This document shows, in pieces, positions 59,083 to 64,000 of a stretch of DNA of 64,000 nucleotides; the stretch's first letter is position 1, and every line of letters starts with the position of its first letter. Made by a program: the position numbers and the translations under genes. The DNA is from Candidatus Bathyarchaeota archaeon (GTDB lineage Archaea > Thermoproteota > Bathyarchaeia > 40CM-2-53-6). The notes under the pieces are model-generated. The model did no database searches and had not been told where the DNA came from. It worked only from the letters and a program-made list of their open reading frames with translations. Location of the stretch: NCBI GenBank assembly GCA_963733055.1, contig CAVTBR010000001.1:864001-928000 (forward strand), in the 5' to 3' direction.

Positions 59083-59385
59083 ATGGCCCAGAAAACGGCA
59101 ATAGTCACACTGCGCCTCTCACCCCGTGAAGCAAGACGAGTAAGCGCGGTTCAAGCGTTGACGCACCTGGATAAGGCAACACTCCTGAGGGATTTCATCG
59201 AGGACGGGTTGAGGAGGAGAGTCCTAGAATCCTACAGGGAAGGCCACATCACGTCCCAGAGGGCGGCCGATGTACTTGACATTCCCCTACGAGAATTCCT
59301 CAGCCTGCTGGAGAAGAATGGAATAGTTGTCAACTGGGACAGCGACCCAATCCGCGACTACATGACTAAACGCTACGGCGAATAA
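59083..59385 (+). CDS. Antitoxin, RHH plus UPF0175 family
   Basis: VTLRL...DKATLLR.FI..GL followed by YREGHIT..RAA.VL.IPL.EF..LL. Confidence 0.85.
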   Translation: MAQKTAIVTLRLSPREARRVSAVQALTHLDKATLLRDFIEDGLRRRVLESYREGHITSQRAADVLDIPLREFLSLLEKNGIVVNWDSDPIRDYMTKRYGE

Positions 59386-59388
59386 CCC

Positions 59389-59928
59389 GTGCCCGCCGTC
59401 GCCGACTCGGGCCCACTAATCCACCTAGCCCAGACAAATCAAATCCACCTGCTCAAACGCATCTTCGGAACAATAATCATCGTCCCCGTCGTTAAGCATG
59501 AAGCGGTGGACCAAGGAGGATTGTACCCTGACGCCAAACTTGTGGCAGACGGATTACAAGAGGGCTACATCACCGTCCGCAGACCCAATAGACAAATTTC
59601 AAACCGAGCCTCAAGACTCGCAAGGCAAGAGAAGATTTCCGAGGCCGACGCACAAACACTCCTCCTAGCCAAAGCCCTGAGAAAACCACTGCTAACAGAC
59701 GAGAAGATTCTTTCGACGCTGGCAAAGATGTACGGCCTTGAAGCCTGGAACACCTGGACGATCCTCTTGGAAGCCTTAAGAACGAAGAATATTGAGAAAC
59801 ACGAAATCCACCAAGCCATTAGCGAACTCGGAGACAGAAGACACAAACTCTCCCCCACCTACACGAAGCAGATCCTTGATGCCGCGGACCGAATCACCGC
59901 ATCGAAGACCAACAACCAAAGCAACTAG
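59389..59928 (+). CDS. PIN-domain toxin (DUF3368-like VapC)
   Basis: AVADSGPLIHLA, V..E, AD and LLTDE; coupled to the UPF0175 antitoxin. Confidence 0.87.
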   Translation: MPAVADSGPLIHLAQTNQIHLLKRIFGTIIIVPVVKHEAVDQGGLYPDAKLVADGLQEGYITVRRPNRQISNRASRLARQEKISEADAQTLLLAKALRKPLLTDEKILSTLAKMYGLEAWNTWTILLEALRTKNIEKHEIHQAISELGDRRHKLSPTYTKQILDAADRITASKTNNQSN

Positions 59929-60113
59929 CCAACGAAACTTAACCCCGAACAAAACCCACAGCTGAAACGCTAGGGTTTTGAAAATCAAAACGGTTGAGTC
60001 TCTCACTCTCTCTATGCCACCCAAACCTAACCACCCCTTATCCCACCCCTGAACACGGATCAGCCATATTCTGAATCTGTAAACCCCGTAGAGTTGGGAG
60101 TGAACGATAGGAA

Positions 60114-60467
60114 ATGGGACGTGGGAAGTGTAGGAGTTTGCTCCTCCTTACCCAAGAAGAGGCACACCGCCTAACCGACGCCCTAACCCCCTACCACATA
60201 TCAAAAAGCTTCATCATCCAAGAAGCCATCCAGCTCGGATTACAAACCCTAGACCACACAAACATTCCCGGGCCAAGAAGCAGAATACTCCAATTTCGTC
60301 TCCCCGCCAAACTCCACAAGAGGGTAAGAGAACTGGCTCAGGAACGGCACATTAGCCAACAAAGCCTCATCCGATATTTCCTCTTCACATACCTCTCCCA
60401 GTTGGAAAGAAAGAGCACCCCCCTAACAAAAGCCCGAAGCCACAACAGGAGAGGCGGTAGCTGTTGA
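60114..60467 (+). CDS. Tandem ribbon-helix-helix DNA-binding protein
   Basis: Two RHH repeats (LLLTQEEAHRL...ISKSFIIQEAI; QFRLPAKLHKRV...ISQQSLIRYFL); overlaps the next gene by 4 nt. Confidence 0.72.
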   Translation: MGRGKCRSLLLLTQEEAHRLTDALTPYHISKSFIIQEAIQLGLQTLDHTNIPGPRSRILQFRLPAKLHKRVRELAQERHISQQSLIRYFLFTYLSQLERKSTPLTKARSHNRRGGSC

Positions 60468-60877
60468 AGTTCAGGCATAAATCAAAATGGCAAGAGGCTG
60501 GCCCGATTAGAATCGCAACCTCCGACGAAGACAAACCCGAACACGAGCGGTTGAAGAAGGGAATCATCAAACTCCTCAACAAGTTCGGAGGATACGAACC
60601 CGACCTCGACGATATCTTCGTCGAAGAGATCGCCTCCTCCACCATATACTACAAGAAAATTGAACAATTCCTAGATACCGCCTCCGCAACCGAATACACC
60701 TACGCCAGCATCGCCGACTCTAAACTGAAATGGCAAAAAACCATCCAAACCGCCATGCGCGAACTCGCATTAACTCGCCGCGACCGCCTCGACCAAAAAG
60801 ACCAAACCAACTTCACCCGACAACTTCAGGAAGCCATAGACAAAGCGAAAAAGGCAAAGAAACATTGGGCGATCTAG
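60464..60877 (+). CDS. Putative terminase small subunit
   Basis: Helical 137-aa protein overlapping the terL start; ELALTRRDR resembles the ELGLTPxxR motif of P27-type TerS. Confidence 0.6.
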   Translation: MKFRHKSKWQEAGPIRIATSDEDKPEHERLKKGIIKLLNKFGGYEPDLDDIFVEEIASSTIYYKKIEQFLDTASATEYTYASIADSKLKWQKTIQTAMRELALTRRDRLDQKDQTNFTRQLQEAIDKAKKAKKHWAI

Positions 60878-62202
60878 AGAAAGCCATCCGTGAACTCACC
60901 GAAATCTACCTCCAAGCCCTCACCGACGAAGTTGAGTTCGCTAGGAAGATCCTAGACTTCAACCCCTTCCCCTACCAAGAAGAATTCCTACGCGACCGAT
61001 CCCCGTTGATTGTAGCGTGTTGCGGCAGGCAGGTTGGAAAAACCACCCTAACCGCCATCAAAGCCCTCCACTACGCCCTATCCCAAGACACCACCCGAGT
61101 GCTGATCGTAAGTGCCGGACTAAGACAATCCAAGATATTATTCAACAAAATCCTAGGATACATCGACACCTCCCTACCCCCCAAAGTGTTGACCACCAAG
61201 AAAACCAGCACCCAGGTCAGGTTCGCGAACGGCTCCGAAATAGTAGCCCTACCCTGCGGCCATGATGGGGTAAGCCTCCGCGGCTACACGAGCGACCTCG
61301 CCATAGTCGACGAAGCCAACTTCATGCCCCCCATCGTCATAGACTCCGTCATCAGACCAACAACAATAACCCGACCAGACGCCCGAATCATTATGGTCTC
61401 AACCCCCTGGACCAGAAACCACCCATTCTACGACGCCCTAACCAAACCCGACCAAGGCTTCAAAGCCTACACCTGGCCAAGTTCAATGAACCCGCTAACC
61501 ACAAAGGAGAAACTTGAAGTTGAAAGGAAGACGATTGGAGAGTATGATTTCAACCGCGAATACAACGCCAACTTCCTCGACGACCAATTCAGCTACTTCC
61601 CAAGCAAACTCATCCTAACCTGCACCGACGACTACACCCTCACCGATCAATCCCAAATCAAGTATACACCCAAAGGCAAATACTATGTTGGCATAGATTT
61701 CGGCAAACACGTCGACCACACAGCCATCGCCATAGTAGAAGAACAGAACGACCACTCCCTCCGACTAGTTTACCTCCAAGAACTCCCACTGGAAACCCCC
61801 TACACCACCGCAATAGAAACCATCCACACATTACAAGCCGCCTACCAATTCAGAGGCGGACGCCTCGACCAAACTGGAGTCGGGGAGGCGCCCTTTGAAG
61901 AAATAAGAAAATTCGCCCCAACCATCCAAGGCATCAAATTCACCGCCCCCATCAAAGAAAACATCCTCAGCAAACTACTACTCAAAATGGAACACCACGA
62001 AATCACAATACCCAGAGAACCACAACGCCTCCTCACACAACTAACCCAACAACGCTGCGAACCAACCCAGAGCGGGAACCTGAAGTTCTCGCACCCGGAG
62101 GGAACCCACGACGACCTCGCCTGGGCATTCGCCCTAGCCGTATACGCATACCCAGGAAACCTAGACTGGATGGGCACAGTAATCGGCGTACCCCATTCCT
62201 AG
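60865..62202 (+). CDS. Terminase large subunit (ATPase + RNase H-like nuclease)
   Basis: PYQ adenine motif, Walker A GRQVGKT, Walker B IVDEA, STP coupling motif, nuclease GIDFG, DQTGVG and HDD; probable TTG start at 60865. Confidence 0.93.
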   Translation: MGDLEKAIRELTEIYLQALTDEVEFARKILDFNPFPYQEEFLRDRSPLIVACCGRQVGKTTLTAIKALHYALSQDTTRVLIVSAGLRQSKILFNKILGYIDTSLPPKVLTTKKTSTQVRFANGSEIVALPCGHDGVSLRGYTSDLAIVDEANFMPPIVIDSVIRPTTITRPDARIIMVSTPWTRNHPFYDALTKPDQGFKAYTWPSSMNPLTTKEKLEVERKTIGEYDFNREYNANFLDDQFSYFPSKLILTCTDDYTLTDQSQIKYTPKGKYYVGIDFGKHVDHTAIAIVEEQNDHSLRLVYLQELPLETPYTTAIETIHTLQAAYQFRGGRLDQTGVGEAPFEEIRKFAPTIQGIKFTAPIKENILSKLLLKMEHHEITIPREPQRLLTQLTQQRCEPTQSGNLKFSHPEGTHDDLAWAFALAVYAYPGNLDWMGTVIGVPHS

Positions 62203-62278
62203 ACTGAAGACAGAGGAGCATTGGCAAGCAGCGGCGTAAGCGAGAAGCCCCCGGCCCCTTGGCGTAAGAGGAGGCCAC

Positions 62279-62324
62279 GTAAGGAATCCTTACTTACTAG
62301 AACATTACTAGAAGCCTTACTAGA
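62279..62324 (+). promoter_or_regulatory. Probable AbrB-antitoxin operator array
   Basis: GTAAGG-AAT-CCTTAC palindrome (62279-62293) plus TTACTAGA at 62294, 62305 and 62317, just upstream of the GTG start. Confidence 0.6.
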
Positions 62325-62335
62325 GGCATATTTCG

Positions 62336-62632
62336 GTGGCGGCAAGCCAAGTCGTGAAAATAACTTCAAAGGGACAGTTTACGCTTCCAGTTGAAATACG
62401 GAGAGAACTGTCACTGGGCAAAGACAGCCACGTCTATGTTACGAAACTGGGGCGACTCATTGTAATCAAGAAGGTTGAGGAATTGTCCTTGGATGACATC
62501 TCAGCCATCCTCGAACCCCTTGCGAAAAGAAACGGCCTCACGCGCAGGATACTCATGGAAGATATTGAGAAGGCAAGGGAGAAAATGCTTGGAGAGAAAC
62601 AAGGCAAAGCCCACCCCCACCGTTCTCATTGA
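62336..62632 (+). CDS. AbrB/MazE/SpoVT family antitoxin
   Basis: VKITSKGQFTLPVEIRRELSL. Confidence 0.9.
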   Translation: MAASQVVKITSKGQFTLPVEIRRELSLGKDSHVYVTKLGRLIVIKKVEELSLDDISAILEPLAKRNGLTRRILMEDIEKAREKMLGEKQGKAHPHRSH

Positions 62633-63044
62633 CACAAACATCCTCGTTTCCGGCCTAGTATTCCTTGACGGTAATGAGCATCGAATACTCAAACTTGCAG
62701 AAGACAAAGCCATAACCCTCGTCCTACCTGACTTCGTACTGAAAGAAGCGAGGGCCGTCCTAAGCCGCCGCTTCCCAGGCCATGAAATATTCCAAGATGC
62801 GTTTCTTCTGCGAGTGAAGCACACCATAGTTCCTTGGAACCGAATCGAACAAGACATCCCCATCCACCGGAGCGAGGTCAGAGACGCAAAGGACGTAGCA
62901 GTGCTGACCTCGATAATTCTAGCCAAACCCGATTTCGCAATAACAGGAGACAAGACTCTAAGAGAGGACATAAAGCACTGCCACGACGCTCAGACCACAA
63001 CTCTTTGCTCTTCAAATGAACTCCTAAAGAAAATCGCGAAATGA
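62589..63044 (+). CDS. PIN-domain toxin (VapC-like)
   Basis: VLIDTNILVSG, E, RD.KD and ITGD; probable TTG start at 62589. Confidence 0.88.
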   Translation: MERNKAKPTPTVLIDTNILVSGLVFLDGNEHRILKLAEDKAITLVLPDFVLKEARAVLSRRFPGHEIFQDAFLLRVKHTIVPWNRIEQDIPIHRSEVRDAKDVAVLTSIILAKPDFAITGDKTLREDIKHCHDAQTTTLCSSNELLKKIAK

Positions 63045-63299
63045 GCTTAGCATACACGGACACCCTTCCCTGGAACTCTTCATGAGCACCCCTATGGACG
63101 GCTACTACATCGACCTCGGTTCCGCAAGATTCTTCGCGGCGCCGTGGCGATTTCGCGAGAGGATGGCGCCTAGGATTTTCGATACGAAACTTAGTCTGGT
63201 GCAGAAAGCATCTTTAGTTCCAGCGTGAAACTTGAAGAGGAAGGCGCGATCCTCAAGAAGTTCAATCCCTTAAATACATGTCATACATGTTATACGTAC

Positions 63300-63509
63300 A
63301 TGACAGAAGCTGTGTCCGTTAGACTTCCAGAGGATACGGCCAGACGACTAGAAGAACTGGCCCAAGTACTTGAACGTCCGAAGACCTACATTGTCACGAA
63401 GGCTCTGCAGGAATATCTGGAAGAGTACGAGGATTACCTGATTGCAATGCACAGGTTAAACAACAAAGCCGATAAAGTGATCTCAGAGAAAGAACTGGTC
63501 AAGAGTTGA
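63300..63509 (+). CDS. RHH antitoxin (RelB/CopG-like)
   Basis: MTEAVSVRLPE....RLEELA...ERPKTYIV..AL.EYLEEYEDY; TACATGT repeats upstream. Confidence 0.88.
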   Translation: MTEAVSVRLPEDTARRLEELAQVLERPKTYIVTKALQEYLEEYEDYLIAMHRLNNKADKVISEKELVKS

Positions 63510-63760
63510 CCAGTAACATTTTCTACAAATCTTCCGTCCGCCACGACCTCAAGAAGATTGACCCGAAGAACCTGACGAGAATACTTCGTGAGATAAGAGA
63601 GGTATTGGGAAATAACCCTCATGCAGGCGAAGCATTACGTGGAGAGTTCAAGGGACTATACAAGCTACGCGTCGGTGACTACCGGGTTATCTATGCTCTC
63701 ATAAGTCAAGGGGTGCTTGTGCTGAGAATTAGGTACAGAAGTAAGGCCTACGACTCCTGA
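63506..63760 (+). CDS. relE: RelE/ParE family toxin
   Basis: L.G...GLYKLRVGDYRVIY...IRYR..AY; 4-nt overlap with the antitoxin. Confidence 0.9.
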   Translation: MTSNIFYKSSVRHDLKKIDPKNLTRILREIREVLGNNPHAGEALRGEFKGLYKLRVGDYRVIYALISQGVLVLRIRYRSKAYDS

Positions 63761-63786: not shown

Positions 63787-64000
63787 TTAGACGGTGACGG
63801 TAATTAGTTCCAACTTGTCCGGTTTCTGTGCCTCGGCACGCGTGTTAAGTTCTTCAAGCACTAACTCGATCGCTTCCCTGATGTTCGAAAGCGCGTGCTC
63901 AGTTTCCCCCTGGCTTATGGCCGCAGGTAACTCAACACACCTAACCGAGTACGCTCCCGTATCCTCCTTCTTGAGGGCAACAGTAAACGTGAGACTCTTC
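63787..64000 (-). CDS. hicB: HicB family antitoxin (5' end beyond window)
   Basis: Manual read: KSLTFTVALKKEDTGAYSVRCVELPAAISQGETEHALSNIREAIELVLEE...TV*. Confidence 0.82.
   Translation of the reverse strand, partial: KSLTFTVALKKEDTGAYSVRCVELPAAISQGETEHALSNIREAIELVLEELNTRAEAQKPDKLELITVTV

Follow-up and report, generated by a model that had tools for sequence, protein, structure and literature searches.

Terminase genes count as hallmarks by which a provirus is recognised. The closest described systems to the locus reported here are the terminases of archaeal Caudoviricetes, including those of Bathyarchaeia, which are abundant archaea of sediment and peat. Our locus shares with these viruses the family of the large terminase subunit (TerL), its motifs and the gene order, in which a small DNA-binding subunit sits directly 5' of TerL. 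Viral relatives carry either an RHH-TerS fusion (cluster c25) or a TerS homologous to ours (cluster c97). Unlike in the archaeal Caudoviricetes, the terminase genes described here are not followed by portal, scaffold or capsid genes, and none were found genome-wide. They also differ from their viral relatives in that the RHH domain is duplicated and usually encoded by a separate gene, and in that TerL lies on a long separate branch.

A second point of comparison is offered by phage satellites. PICIs and SaPIs (with their own TerS), PICMIs and cf-PICIs carry packaging-specificity genes, obtain capsids from another virus and harbor defence or toxin-antitoxin (TA) cargo. The present cassette likewise carries packaging-specificity genes on the chromosome in association with TA genes, and would rely on another virus for capsids. 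In contrast to PICI/SaPI satellites, it encodes a full TerL besides TerS and resides in an archaeal host, and no integrase within 500 kb or recognisable excision gene in the flanks accompanies it. According to a 2025 preprint (10.1101/2025.02.15.638363), pSSVi and pSSVx, both satellites of spindle-shaped viruses, were the only ones described in Archaea. In lateral transduction (PMC12829572), packaging starts in situ at a pac site of the chromosome and mobilises adjacent defence islands in bacteria, and the behaviour proposed here for the cassette is similar. There, however, the terminase derives from a complete prophage or PICI, whereas the cassette is a resident terminase alone, the packaging activity of which is predicted.

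The locus was found in a window of 64,000 nucleotides from a Candidatus Bathyarchaeota archaeon. Three overlapping genes on the forward strand encode, in order, a tandem RHH protein (ORF1), a TerS-like protein (ORF2) and TerL (Table 1), with overlaps of 4 nt between the first two genes and 13 nt between the last two. A preliminary description had read this triad as a double-RHH protein, a TerS-like protein and a TerL with intact ATPase and nuclease motifs, flanked by TA pairs on both sides; open reading frames, profiles and motif columns bear out the former, and Pfam the latter, with the upstream PIN-like protein scoring below cut-off.

Table 1. Features of the terminase cassette and its flanks (positions within the 64,000-nucleotide window).
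Feature	Position	Strand	Length	Evidence
Tandem (double) RHH DNA-binding protein	60114..60467	+	117 aa	Weak Pfam/PHROG matches, AF2, Foldseek, PDB profiles
TerS-like all-helical protein, small-terminase core	60464..60877	+	137 aa	phrog_361, hhalign to c97
TerL, N-terminal ATPase and C-terminal RNase H-like nuclease	60865..62202	+	445 aa	PF03237, phrog_2, motif columns
Upstream flank, outside the cassette: UPF0175 antitoxin-like (59083-59385), PIN-like (59389-59928)	59083..59928	+		Pfam
Downstream flank, context: MazE/AbrB-type and PIN (62336-63044), RHH and ParE (63225-63760)	62336..63760	+		Pfam

The open frame of TerL spans 60730-62202 and could encode 490 aa. Since the called protein and its database homologues begin at residue 46, the shorter form listed in Table 1, which uses a TTG start, is the most likely one. 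PF03237 matches TerL above the curated cut-off (E 6e-14), the nuclease domain PF17289 matches below its cut-off (E 0.0015), and the PHROGs family phrog_2, annotated as terminase large subunit, covers residues 36-474 (E 1.4e-45). In the TerL alignment, the columns of Walker A, Walker B, the S-T-P motif and the acidic and H-D-D nuclease residues are invariant or nearly so; more specifically, D278, D284, H415, D416 and D417 are invariant. By sequence, TerL is thus a large terminase subunit of the Terminase_6N/6C type that combines a packaging ATPase domain with an RNase H-like nuclease domain.

The TerS signal of ORF2 is weak when the protein is considered individually (phrog_361, E 1e-3), and 5 of the 17 members of its family match this TerS family, with one further member matching phrog_83. 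The profile of the whole family aligns with viral cluster c97, the gene that sits immediately 5' of TerL and portal in viruses (hhalign 95.4%, E 1.6e-8). By sequence and position, ORF2 is a TerS-like protein and the putative core of the small terminase subunit, with its gene directly 5' of TerL and a viral TerS as homologue. The AlphaFold2 (AF2) model consists of four helices (pLDDT 79.8) and is only moderately similar to HK97 TerS (8pop), with a TM-score of approximately 0.5; VIA ranks this match 22nd with a Z of 6.9, amid unrelated helical proteins. A Foldseek search of the model against PDB and BFVD returned no match at E <= 0.001, and searching PDB profiles with the family of ORF2 gave nothing meaningful.

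RHH matches of ORF1 are also weak in both Pfam and PHROGs (RHH_1 at 18.4 bits, below cut-off). The AF2 model (pLDDT 77.5) shows the strand-helix-helix unit twice, and each half of the protein matches RHH chains in the PDB profile search. As modeled, ORF1 is a tandem RHH protein in which the beta-alpha-alpha unit is duplicated within a single chain. Its best Foldseek matches are F-plasmid relaxosome chains of 104-120 residues (TM 0.63-0.70, E 2e-3), which we take to be TraY although this name does not appear in the entry titles; other top matches include single-chain Arc, DndE and AvtR. TraY-type accessory proteins likewise carry two RHH repeats per chain, but their partner enzyme is a relaxase rather than a terminase, and their kinship with ORF1 is limited to the fold. 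At one related locus (L024), the RHH protein and the TerS-like part are fused. Within what would be a small terminase split over two genes, site recognition probably falls to the RHH protein.

Searches of the 2.88-Mb genome with Pfam models and with profiles of Bathyarchaeial viruses recovered neither portal nor capsid nor scaffold genes; the genome is 96% complete, so this absence is not absolute. PF04860, PF05065, PF05133 and PF25209 had no match, and neither did the portal protein or the major capsid protein of a provirus from the same genus. PF06074 (Mu portal) also had no match in the genome, but its control likewise matched nowhere, which makes this result uninformative. Ten viral-locus-cluster profiles, including portal (68 sequences) and scaffold (67) among others, yielded nothing below E 0.0078. 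The possibility raised earlier of a provirus continuing past position 64000 found no support, as the next 8 kb hold no portal and instead contain further TA pairs, a glycosyltransferase and a flippase-like gene. No replication or excision genes are recognisable in the flanks. PF00589 identified six integrases in the genome, the nearest on the same contig at a distance of about 500 kb from the triad, with no tyrosine integrase any closer. Spacer-like matches to the triad elsewhere in the genome were confined to conserved TerL motifs in a paralogue.

These results bear on one reading in which the locus would do the packaging for a dispersed gene-transfer agent (GTA) that keeps its head and tail genes at other sites of the genome. 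GTAs can have multi-locus genomes and the terminase is intact, but neither portal, capsid and scaffold genes nor any other head-cluster homologue were found in the 96%-complete genome with Pfam or lineage-specific profiles. This option, proposed in the preliminary description, is disfavoured because capsid genes were not found, and we regard it as highly improbable.

Cluster c12 was considered as a second portal type and rejected, since Pfam identifies it as an ABC-ATPase/GNAT fusion. In several IMG/VR contigs, a portal-less TerL adjoins such an ABC-ATPase/GNAT gene, and these contigs may be false provirus calls.

To place the locus among its relatives, TerL phylogenies were calculated ('quick' trees, LG+G4, with SH-aLRT as the only support measure). 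Window-type TerLs make up 31 of the 85 rows and fall on a single branch (SH-aLRT 100) with a long stem of 0.98; an earlier tree of 130 rows agrees. The nearest outgroups (L049, L052, L045, L047, L107) are portal-linked, and window-clade TerLs share only 35-43% identity with the TerLs of viral contexts. None of the 31 members has the adjoining virion morphogenesis module (portal/capsid) of a Terminase_6N/6C system, or any structural gene, within 8-10 kb. Structural-profile matches were similarly absent from all 45 metagenome loci of the clade. The lineage has its origin in the terminases of tailed viruses of Bathyarchaeia and now stands apart from portal and capsid genes. The own genome contains three TerL paralogues, exactly those recovered by the lineage TerL profile, and the other two terminase pairs nest within viral clades.

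The triad itself is widely retained. Window-type copies occur in about 10 of the 23 genomes of the genus and are missing from about half. Wherever upstream sequence is present, RHH and TerS-like genes lie 5' of TerL, with the exception of one divergent subclade that lacks an RHH match. Among the 45 metagenome loci, 39 carry the TerS-like gene and 32 the RHH gene, the misses lying mostly at contig ends. The TerL frames of these loci are full in 28, cut at contig ends in 12 and broken in 5, so that 28 of the 33 assessable copies are full length and about 15% are broken; broken clade members include L023 and L044. TerL evolves under purifying selection, with dN/dS values of 0.11-0.19 spanning protein identities of 44-88%. 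Compared with the closest relative (L036), an 88% identical orthologue, dN/dS is 0.166, and the two TerL domains are similarly constrained (0.170 and 0.157). Unsaturated pairs give 0.20-0.42 for the TerS-like protein and 0.21-0.47 for the RHH protein. The central proposal of the preliminary description, a stand-alone terminase module, is supported by the absence of head genes and by three of its expectations that held up here: further RHH-TerS-TerL copies across the genus, a monophyletic portal-less clade, and purifying selection on TerL.

The same data weigh on the idea that the locus is an inert leftover from a decayed provirus, still awaiting deletion. Its viral descent, the two other terminase pairs within viral clades and the presence of some broken members would be in line with such a remnant. 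However, all 31 clade members lack structural genes and yet the three genes are kept intact; TerL remains constrained over the entire range of identities; and most assessable copies are full length in a unit that recurs in unrelated contexts. The remnant reading is already strained, and we consider it very unlikely.

The unit itself can be delimited by comparison between loci. Homology at the DNA level extends no more than about 20 bp (2-18 bp) past the stop codon of TerL and reaches 60-230 bp ahead of the RHH gene, with flanks that differ between loci, and these borders define a cassette of 2.2 kb. It was found in at least six different contexts, most of which are rich in TA genes. The cassette moves as a 2.2-kb unit among the TA islands of one Bathyarchaeia genus. 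At the window locus, the upstream flank contains UPF0175 (E 1.8e-7) and a PIN-like protein (E 5.7e-4, below cut-off), and the downstream flank contains MazE (E 5e-6) with PIN_3 (2e-10), followed by RHH_1 (3.7e-7) with ParE (5e-11). In L036, the UPF0175/PIN pair is located 3' of TerL, not 5'. Pfam confirmed the TA identity of 5 of 10 sampled neighbours at other cassette loci.

This neighbourhood raises the question of whether the cassette acts without any capsid, as a defence or addiction module. In such a module, the RHH protein would repress or sense, and TerL would serve as an ATP-driven nuclease effector that cuts viral or cellular DNA, or as a dominant-negative poison of virus packaging, with persistence resembling that of TA systems. 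The embedding of the triad among TA pairs, the small size and tight borders of the cassette, its patchy distribution with occasional decay, and the position of an RHH regulator first in the operon, as in many TA operons, are all consistent with this, as is the long stem branch that follows the departure from the viral context. On the other hand, no family in PADLOC-DB 2.0 matches any of the three triad proteins (E <= 0.01), and we found no published precedent. Furthermore, the equal constraint on both TerL domains and the conservation of the cognate TerS are more readily reconciled with a functional packaging enzyme than with a nuclease alone. A capsid-independent defence or addiction role appears to us rather unlikely.

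Several related loci bear traces of recombination. Here, TA cassettes lie 3' of TerL, and each is terminated by a displaced TerL 3' end. Of the ~19 loci that have 2 kb or more of sequence beyond TerL, 5 independent ones carry downstream TA cassettes bounded by such displaced ends, and no comparable TerL 3' repeat was seen in 70 viral-context loci. In addition, the TerL gene is mosaic in related loci, with a breakpoint that coincides with the fragment edge. Together, the displaced ends and the mosaic genes indicate that adjacent DNA has been exchanged between cassette-bearing loci. The displaced fragment is absent from the window locus, and no integrase was seen on reading the ORFs of L177 and L195.

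Such scars could point to a recombination platform or self-mobilising element, in which a nuclease guided by RHH/TerS would break DNA near its own TerL 3' end, free of any capsid, and the break would move the cassette or capture neighbouring cassettes. Besides the displaced ends, their restriction to non-viral contexts and the mosaic breakpoint, the lack of a nearby integrase in the own genome, the variety of cassette contexts and the resemblance of the RHH fold to a relaxosome accessory protein speak for this model. Nevertheless, the borders of four locus pairs show neither terminal inverted or direct repeats nor target duplications, and the ends of the window cassette, which is itself scar-free, have no flanking repeats beyond short chance-level matches. 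Ordinary homology-anchored recombination on the shared TerL can explain the scars, and we know of no terminase nuclease that joins DNA, which also counts against such a platform. Overall, we judge it improbable. The same holds for a more specific version, in our view a doubtful one, in which TerL breaks at its own 3' end would capture TA/defence cassettes in the manner of an integrase-free integron and thereby shuffle archaeal TA islands. Every capture would replace the TerL 3' end and displace the old end downstream, possibly coupled to packaging into borrowed capsids. Integron-like platforms have a dedicated site-specific recombinase by the array; no integrase was seen in L177 or L195 or near the window, although repeats bounding cassettes do exist.

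Our best guess for the function is that the cassette serves packaging or transduction with the aid of a helper virus, and interferes with that virus as well. The RHH protein would keep the cassette silent, or auto-repressed, until a related tailed virus infects the cell and supplies procapsids. RHH/TerS would then bind a site within or beside the cassette, and TerL would cut in cis at the bound site and pump adjacent chromosomal DNA, comprising the cassette and neighbouring TA/defence cassettes, into the viral capsids. As a result, the island would spread in the manner of lateral transduction or of a minimal satellite, while capsids are diverted from the virus. Portal-bearing related viruses, such as L034 and L028, occur in the same genus, and potential helpers thus exist. 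Due to the low identity between this TerL and its viral-context counterparts, docking on a helper portal is uncertain. A pac-like site was likewise not recognised. Copies broken in about 15% of cases and missing from about half of the genus would fit any dispensable element.

Two further points weigh against the packaging account. The long stem could reflect a functional shift to something other than packaging. The cassettes involved in the scars measure 1-2 kb, but a headful mechanism would mobilise tens of kb. The account as a whole, that of a capsid-less, virus-derived terminase cassette that is mobile in TA islands and acts in packaging or transduction with a helper as well as in virus interference, is accordingly put forward tentatively, with a likelihood somewhat short of even.

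In our literature searches, we found no published description of an orphan or stand-alone terminase module or of an archaeal cassette of this kind; supplements of papers on Bathyarchaeia MAGs or viruses could mention such genes. What distinguishes the present case is a whole TerL lineage under selection that is devoid of virion genes, resides in TA islands and is accompanied by the exchange of adjacent DNA between loci. This suggests that a viral packaging motor has been put to new use by cells or their islands. For these genomes, it also means that provirus calling based on TerL will produce false positives. If the cassette does borrow capsids, archaeal tailed viruses would have their first satellite-like element, and archaeal defence islands a route by which to move. 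If it works capsid-free, a viral DNA motor and nuclease would have been exapted in a new way.

The triad consists of three open reading frames that overlap one another on the plus strand, and their family matches bear out the arrangement of RHH, TerS-like and TerL genes read by the preliminary description. ORF3 is the large terminase. It matches PF03237 (E 6e-14) and, over nearly its full length, phrog_2 (E 1.4e-45), and the match of its nuclease domain to PF17289 (E 0.0015) lies below that family's cut-off. Since the database version (P0001) comprises 445 aa, TerL most likely starts at a TTG at 60865, from where it overlaps ORF2 by 13 nt. When ORF3 is aligned with nine relatives, little or no variation is seen in the Walker A lysine-threonine, Walker B D-E, S-T-P, or the acidic and H-D-D residues of the nuclease, in line with the earlier reading of intact ATPase and nuclease motifs.

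ORF1 is a tandem RHH protein. Its RHH matches in Pfam and PHROG are weak; the AlphaFold model, with 24 relatives as input, shows strand-helix-helix twice (pLDDT 77.5), and both halves match RHH proteins in a profile search of PDB sequences. The top Foldseek matches of the model include F-plasmid relaxosome chains (104-120 residues, TM 0.63-0.70), single-chain Arc, DndE and AvtR. ORF2 has a predicted structure of four helices (pLDDT 79.8), for which fold searches returned no clear TerS fold match. Its TerS signal is weak (phrog_361, E 1e-3), and among its relatives 5/17 match phrog_361 and 1/17 phrog_83. The best support for TerS identity comes from alignment of the ORF2 family with family c97 (hhalign probability 95.4%, E 1.6e-8), whose genes lie immediately 5' of TerL and portal in viral contigs. 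At the TerL locus L024, a single 227-aa protein combines two RHH repeats with the TerS-like part, which suggests that ORF1 and ORF2 together make up a split small terminase.

Positions of terminase genes and associated features (window positions for the triad, locus positions for L-numbers; G000 is the window's own genome)
Feature	Position	Strand	Remark
ORF1, tandem RHH protein, 117 aa	60114-60467	+	ORF listing
ORF2, TerS-like protein, 137 aa	60464-60877	+	ORF listing
ORF3, TerL	open frame 60730-62202	+	ORF listing
L006 pair, RHH/TerS-like + TerL	G000:C1:294676-296600 (L006 9674-11597)	-	outside window
L005 pair, RHH/TerS-like + TerL	G000:C1:1492674-1494700 (L005 9675-11704)	-	outside window
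Downstream TA cassettes with displaced TerL 3' ends	L177 9172-13380; L195 9188-11665; L191 1174-4698; L186 1317-4889; L188 4882-6958; L218 5188-6123		
Conserved ~190-bp upstream region	L020 8215-8402; L021 8301-8487; L022 8407-8579; L023 6137-6325		oriented loci
Loci with ABC-ATPase/GNAT gene (c12)	L055, L058-L061, L064-L066, L070, L072, L076, L078, L089, L092, L094, L134, L151, L152, L155, L222, L223		

Pfam confirmed that toxin-antitoxin (TA) pairs flank the triad on both sides, as first described. In the 8 kb past the window end no portal gene follows; the genes there are further TA pairs, a glycosyltransferase and a flippase-like gene. A provirus continuing beyond 64000, the case the preliminary description had set against a stand-alone module, was thus not seen there. 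The search for portal and capsid genes that it proposed likewise found none in the genome, a Bathyarchaeia assembly of 2.88 Mb in three contigs that is 96% complete. PF04860, PF05133, PF05065 and PF25209 (portal, capsid) gave no match there, with positive controls detected. Nor did the portal and capsid proteins of L034, a provirus from the same genus with RHH-TerS, split TerL, portal, scaffold/protease and major capsid protein. Ten profiles built from gene clusters of Bathyarchaeial viral loci, among them portal (68 sequences), scaffold (67) and three capsid-like clusters, had no match in the genome better than E 0.0078. The closest tyrosine integrase on the window's contig lies about 500 kb away.

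A TerL profile found exactly three genes in this genome. The two additional TerLs are 38-39% identical to that of the window, and both have an RHH-bearing TerS-like gene ahead of them; further copies, for which the preliminary description had proposed a search, do exist. Both pairs are portal-less and flanked by ordinary cellular or housekeeping genes, and in the trees their TerLs nest within clades of portal-linked viral TerLs. The L006 pair is syntenic with L026 of a second species (dN/dS 0.23). Their TerS-like genes share a mere 25% identity, as if the gene had been swapped. About 330 bp 3' of the L005 TerL, on the same strand, a 47-nt (17-aa) piece resembles window-type TerL (G000:C1:1492301-1492347; 85% nt, E 0.02, a weak signal) and could be left over from an earlier cassette.

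TerL relatives were gathered with 8-10 kb flanks from relatives' genomes, one genome per GTDB species (60 loci), IMG/VR (80 loci) and JGI metagenomes (45 loci), and the ORFs of the loci were clustered. Among 130 non-redundant TerLs, 70 stand alongside a portal or at least two structural clusters, 19 alongside an ABC-ATPase/GNAT gene without portal, and 20 are orphans whose visible flanks reach at least 5 kb downstream and at least 3 kb upstream; 21 lie on contigs too short for a context call. In an 85-row tree, a branch (SH-aLRT 100) with a stem of 0.98 substitutions per site separates the 31 window-type sequences from all others, and the nearest rows outside are portal-linked TerLs. A 130-row tree agrees, both being quick LG+G4 trees. 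The window type is therefore a lineage rather than an accident. Structural profiles matched 0/45 metagenome loci. The TerS-like gene is present at 39 of these loci and the RHH gene at 32; the missing genes are accounted for by contig starts, two 5'-truncated remnants and one divergent subclade (L210-L212), in which the RHH profile had no match.

The window type (copies of at least 44% identity) is present in ~10/23 genomes of the genus, one of which has two. Among 251 genomes sampled from the class, five matches at 42-45% identity belong to genomes outside the genus; they place outside the window-type clade and in three cases adjoin an ABC-ATPase/GNAT gene. The TerL frame is full length at 28 of the 45 metagenome loci, cut by contig ends at 12 and broken at 5. 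Within the genus, one copy carries a TGA, another is an inverted partial duplicate, and the L018 frame is open but lacks a canonical start codon for 82 codons. At L044 (1154-2632, G004:C48), the TerL 3' half is present as two partial copies that abut in inverted orientation (90% over ~1.2 kb), with ParE-like genes on either side; this is a rearranged, dead cassette copy.

Selection was assessed by Nei-Gojobori dN/dS on unsaturated pairs. TerL, for which the preliminary description had proposed this estimate along with the tree and the survey of neighbourhoods, gave 0.11-0.19, the TerS-like gene 0.20-0.42 and the RHH gene 0.21-0.47. Between the window TerL and its 88%-identical orthologue (L036) the value is 0.166, with 0.170 for the ATPase half and 0.157 for the nuclease half; flanking host genes of the same two species show 0.08-0.17. 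Conservation of the three genes and both TerL activities, retention of the cognate DNA-binding small subunit and the absence of virion genes from the genome argue against inert decay of a remnant and against the packaging unit of a gene transfer agent.

Synonymous divergence is lower in terminase genes (dS 0.34-0.40) than in flanking host genes (0.59-0.67) for window TerL/L036 and L006/L026, which may point to transfer later than the species split or to constraints on composition. The coding strand of 60114-62202 is extremely A- and C-rich (GC skew -0.30, AT skew +0.32; the 0.17th and 99.7th percentiles among 1182 long genome ORFs), and 59389-63044 shows the same bias more weakly. Mean GC/AT skews are -0.13/+0.22 for the window-type clade versus +0.06/+0.07 for viral TerLs.

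DNA homology among clade loci starts 60-230 bp 5' of the RHH gene and stops 2-18 bp past the TerL stop; beyond these limits the loci differ, three syntenic groups excepted. No terminal repeats were found at the boundaries of the window cassette and compared loci. The TA pairs around the cassette are shuffled in the window compared with its closest relative. By reading, many clade loci are flanked by TA-type genes; of ten neighbours sampled, Pfam bore out five (AbiEii, two ParE, HicA and a MazE-like protein). Some ~190 bp 5' of the RHH gene are 74-85% conserved between sub-lineages whose RHH proteins share just 34-36%, and may serve as a site of regulation or recognition, or encode a small RNA; the window showed no recognisable counterpart. 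There, the 185 bp that separate the RHH gene from the PIN-like gene upstream contain a 7-bp inverted repeat with a 3-nt spacer (59975-59991, read by eye), which could be a terminator hairpin or operator.

At five independent metagenome loci (~19 have at least 2 kb downstream), an intact TerL has one to three cassettes behind it, and every cassette terminates in a directly repeated TerL 3' end (110-600 bp, 73-94% identical, ending within ~40 bp of the stop codon). The cargo between repeats comprises ParE with antitoxin, AbiEii, AbrB-type proteins and other TA-like genes. The resident TerL of these loci is mosaic. More specifically, the L191 and L187 TerLs are 91-99% identical in the first 700 nt and 62-79% past nt 750, and the L191 breakpoint coincides exactly with the start of its 595-bp displaced fragment, which retains the affinity of the TerL 5' part (86% to L186, versus 75% for the resident 3' part). 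Incoming DNA has thus repeatedly supplanted the TerL 3' end and shifted the former end downstream, with the gene left whole. This could come about by homology-anchored insertion in which TerL is the shared sequence, by one-ended repair where TerL had been broken, or by site-specific capture. A recombination or mobility role of the TerL nuclease itself we consider unlikely. Such repeats were found at 0/70 viral-context loci and not at the window's own locus; one ABC-ATPase/GNAT-type locus (L078) has two.

Just past the window end, two copies of a 90-120-bp element (L004 12865-12956 and 13758-13876; G000:C1:928864-929875) bracket a 227-aa glycosyltransferase gene. The element and the adjacent flippase-like gene overlap at that gene's 3' end, a recurrence at another gene of the pattern of displaced ends seen at TerL, and further copies of the element occur at L036 and L044.

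Two other portal-less contexts were observed. In three species (L030, L031 and L033; G015, G013 and G004), TerL is split into two ORFs (~315 + 199 aa) behind an RHH-TerS fusion, with dN/dS 0.10-0.17 for both pieces; its sister lineage is the split TerL of the true provirus L034. In the second, TerL adjoins a ~490-540-aa ABC-type ATPase-GNAT acetyltransferase fusion (c12), which is not a portal; two small conserved ORFs (c19, c17) often accompany them. IMG/VR catalogues some of these contigs as viral, and the TerLs of this context include near relatives of the window clade.

In the literature searched, supplements aside, no description of stand-alone terminase cassettes was found. The sections considered of Bathyarchaeia virus and MAG papers mention terminases solely within viruses or a provirus, and a 2025 preprint (10.1101/2025.02.15.638363) gives pSSVi and pSSVx as the sole archaeal satellites described before it. 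The conserved genes, the retained small subunit and the lack of virion genes fit an enzyme that still recognises, cuts and translocates DNA. A capsid-independent role in defence or addiction we consider rather unlikely; the triad proteins have no match among PADLOC families. The simplest use of such an enzyme, which we put forward tentatively, would be packaging into the capsids of a related virus during infection; the same genus harbours portal-bearing viruses with TerLs of this family. With capsids supplied by the related virus, packaging would mobilise the cassette and its TA neighbours, like the lateral transduction that mobilises bacterial defence islands (PMC12829572), and would also compete with the virus.
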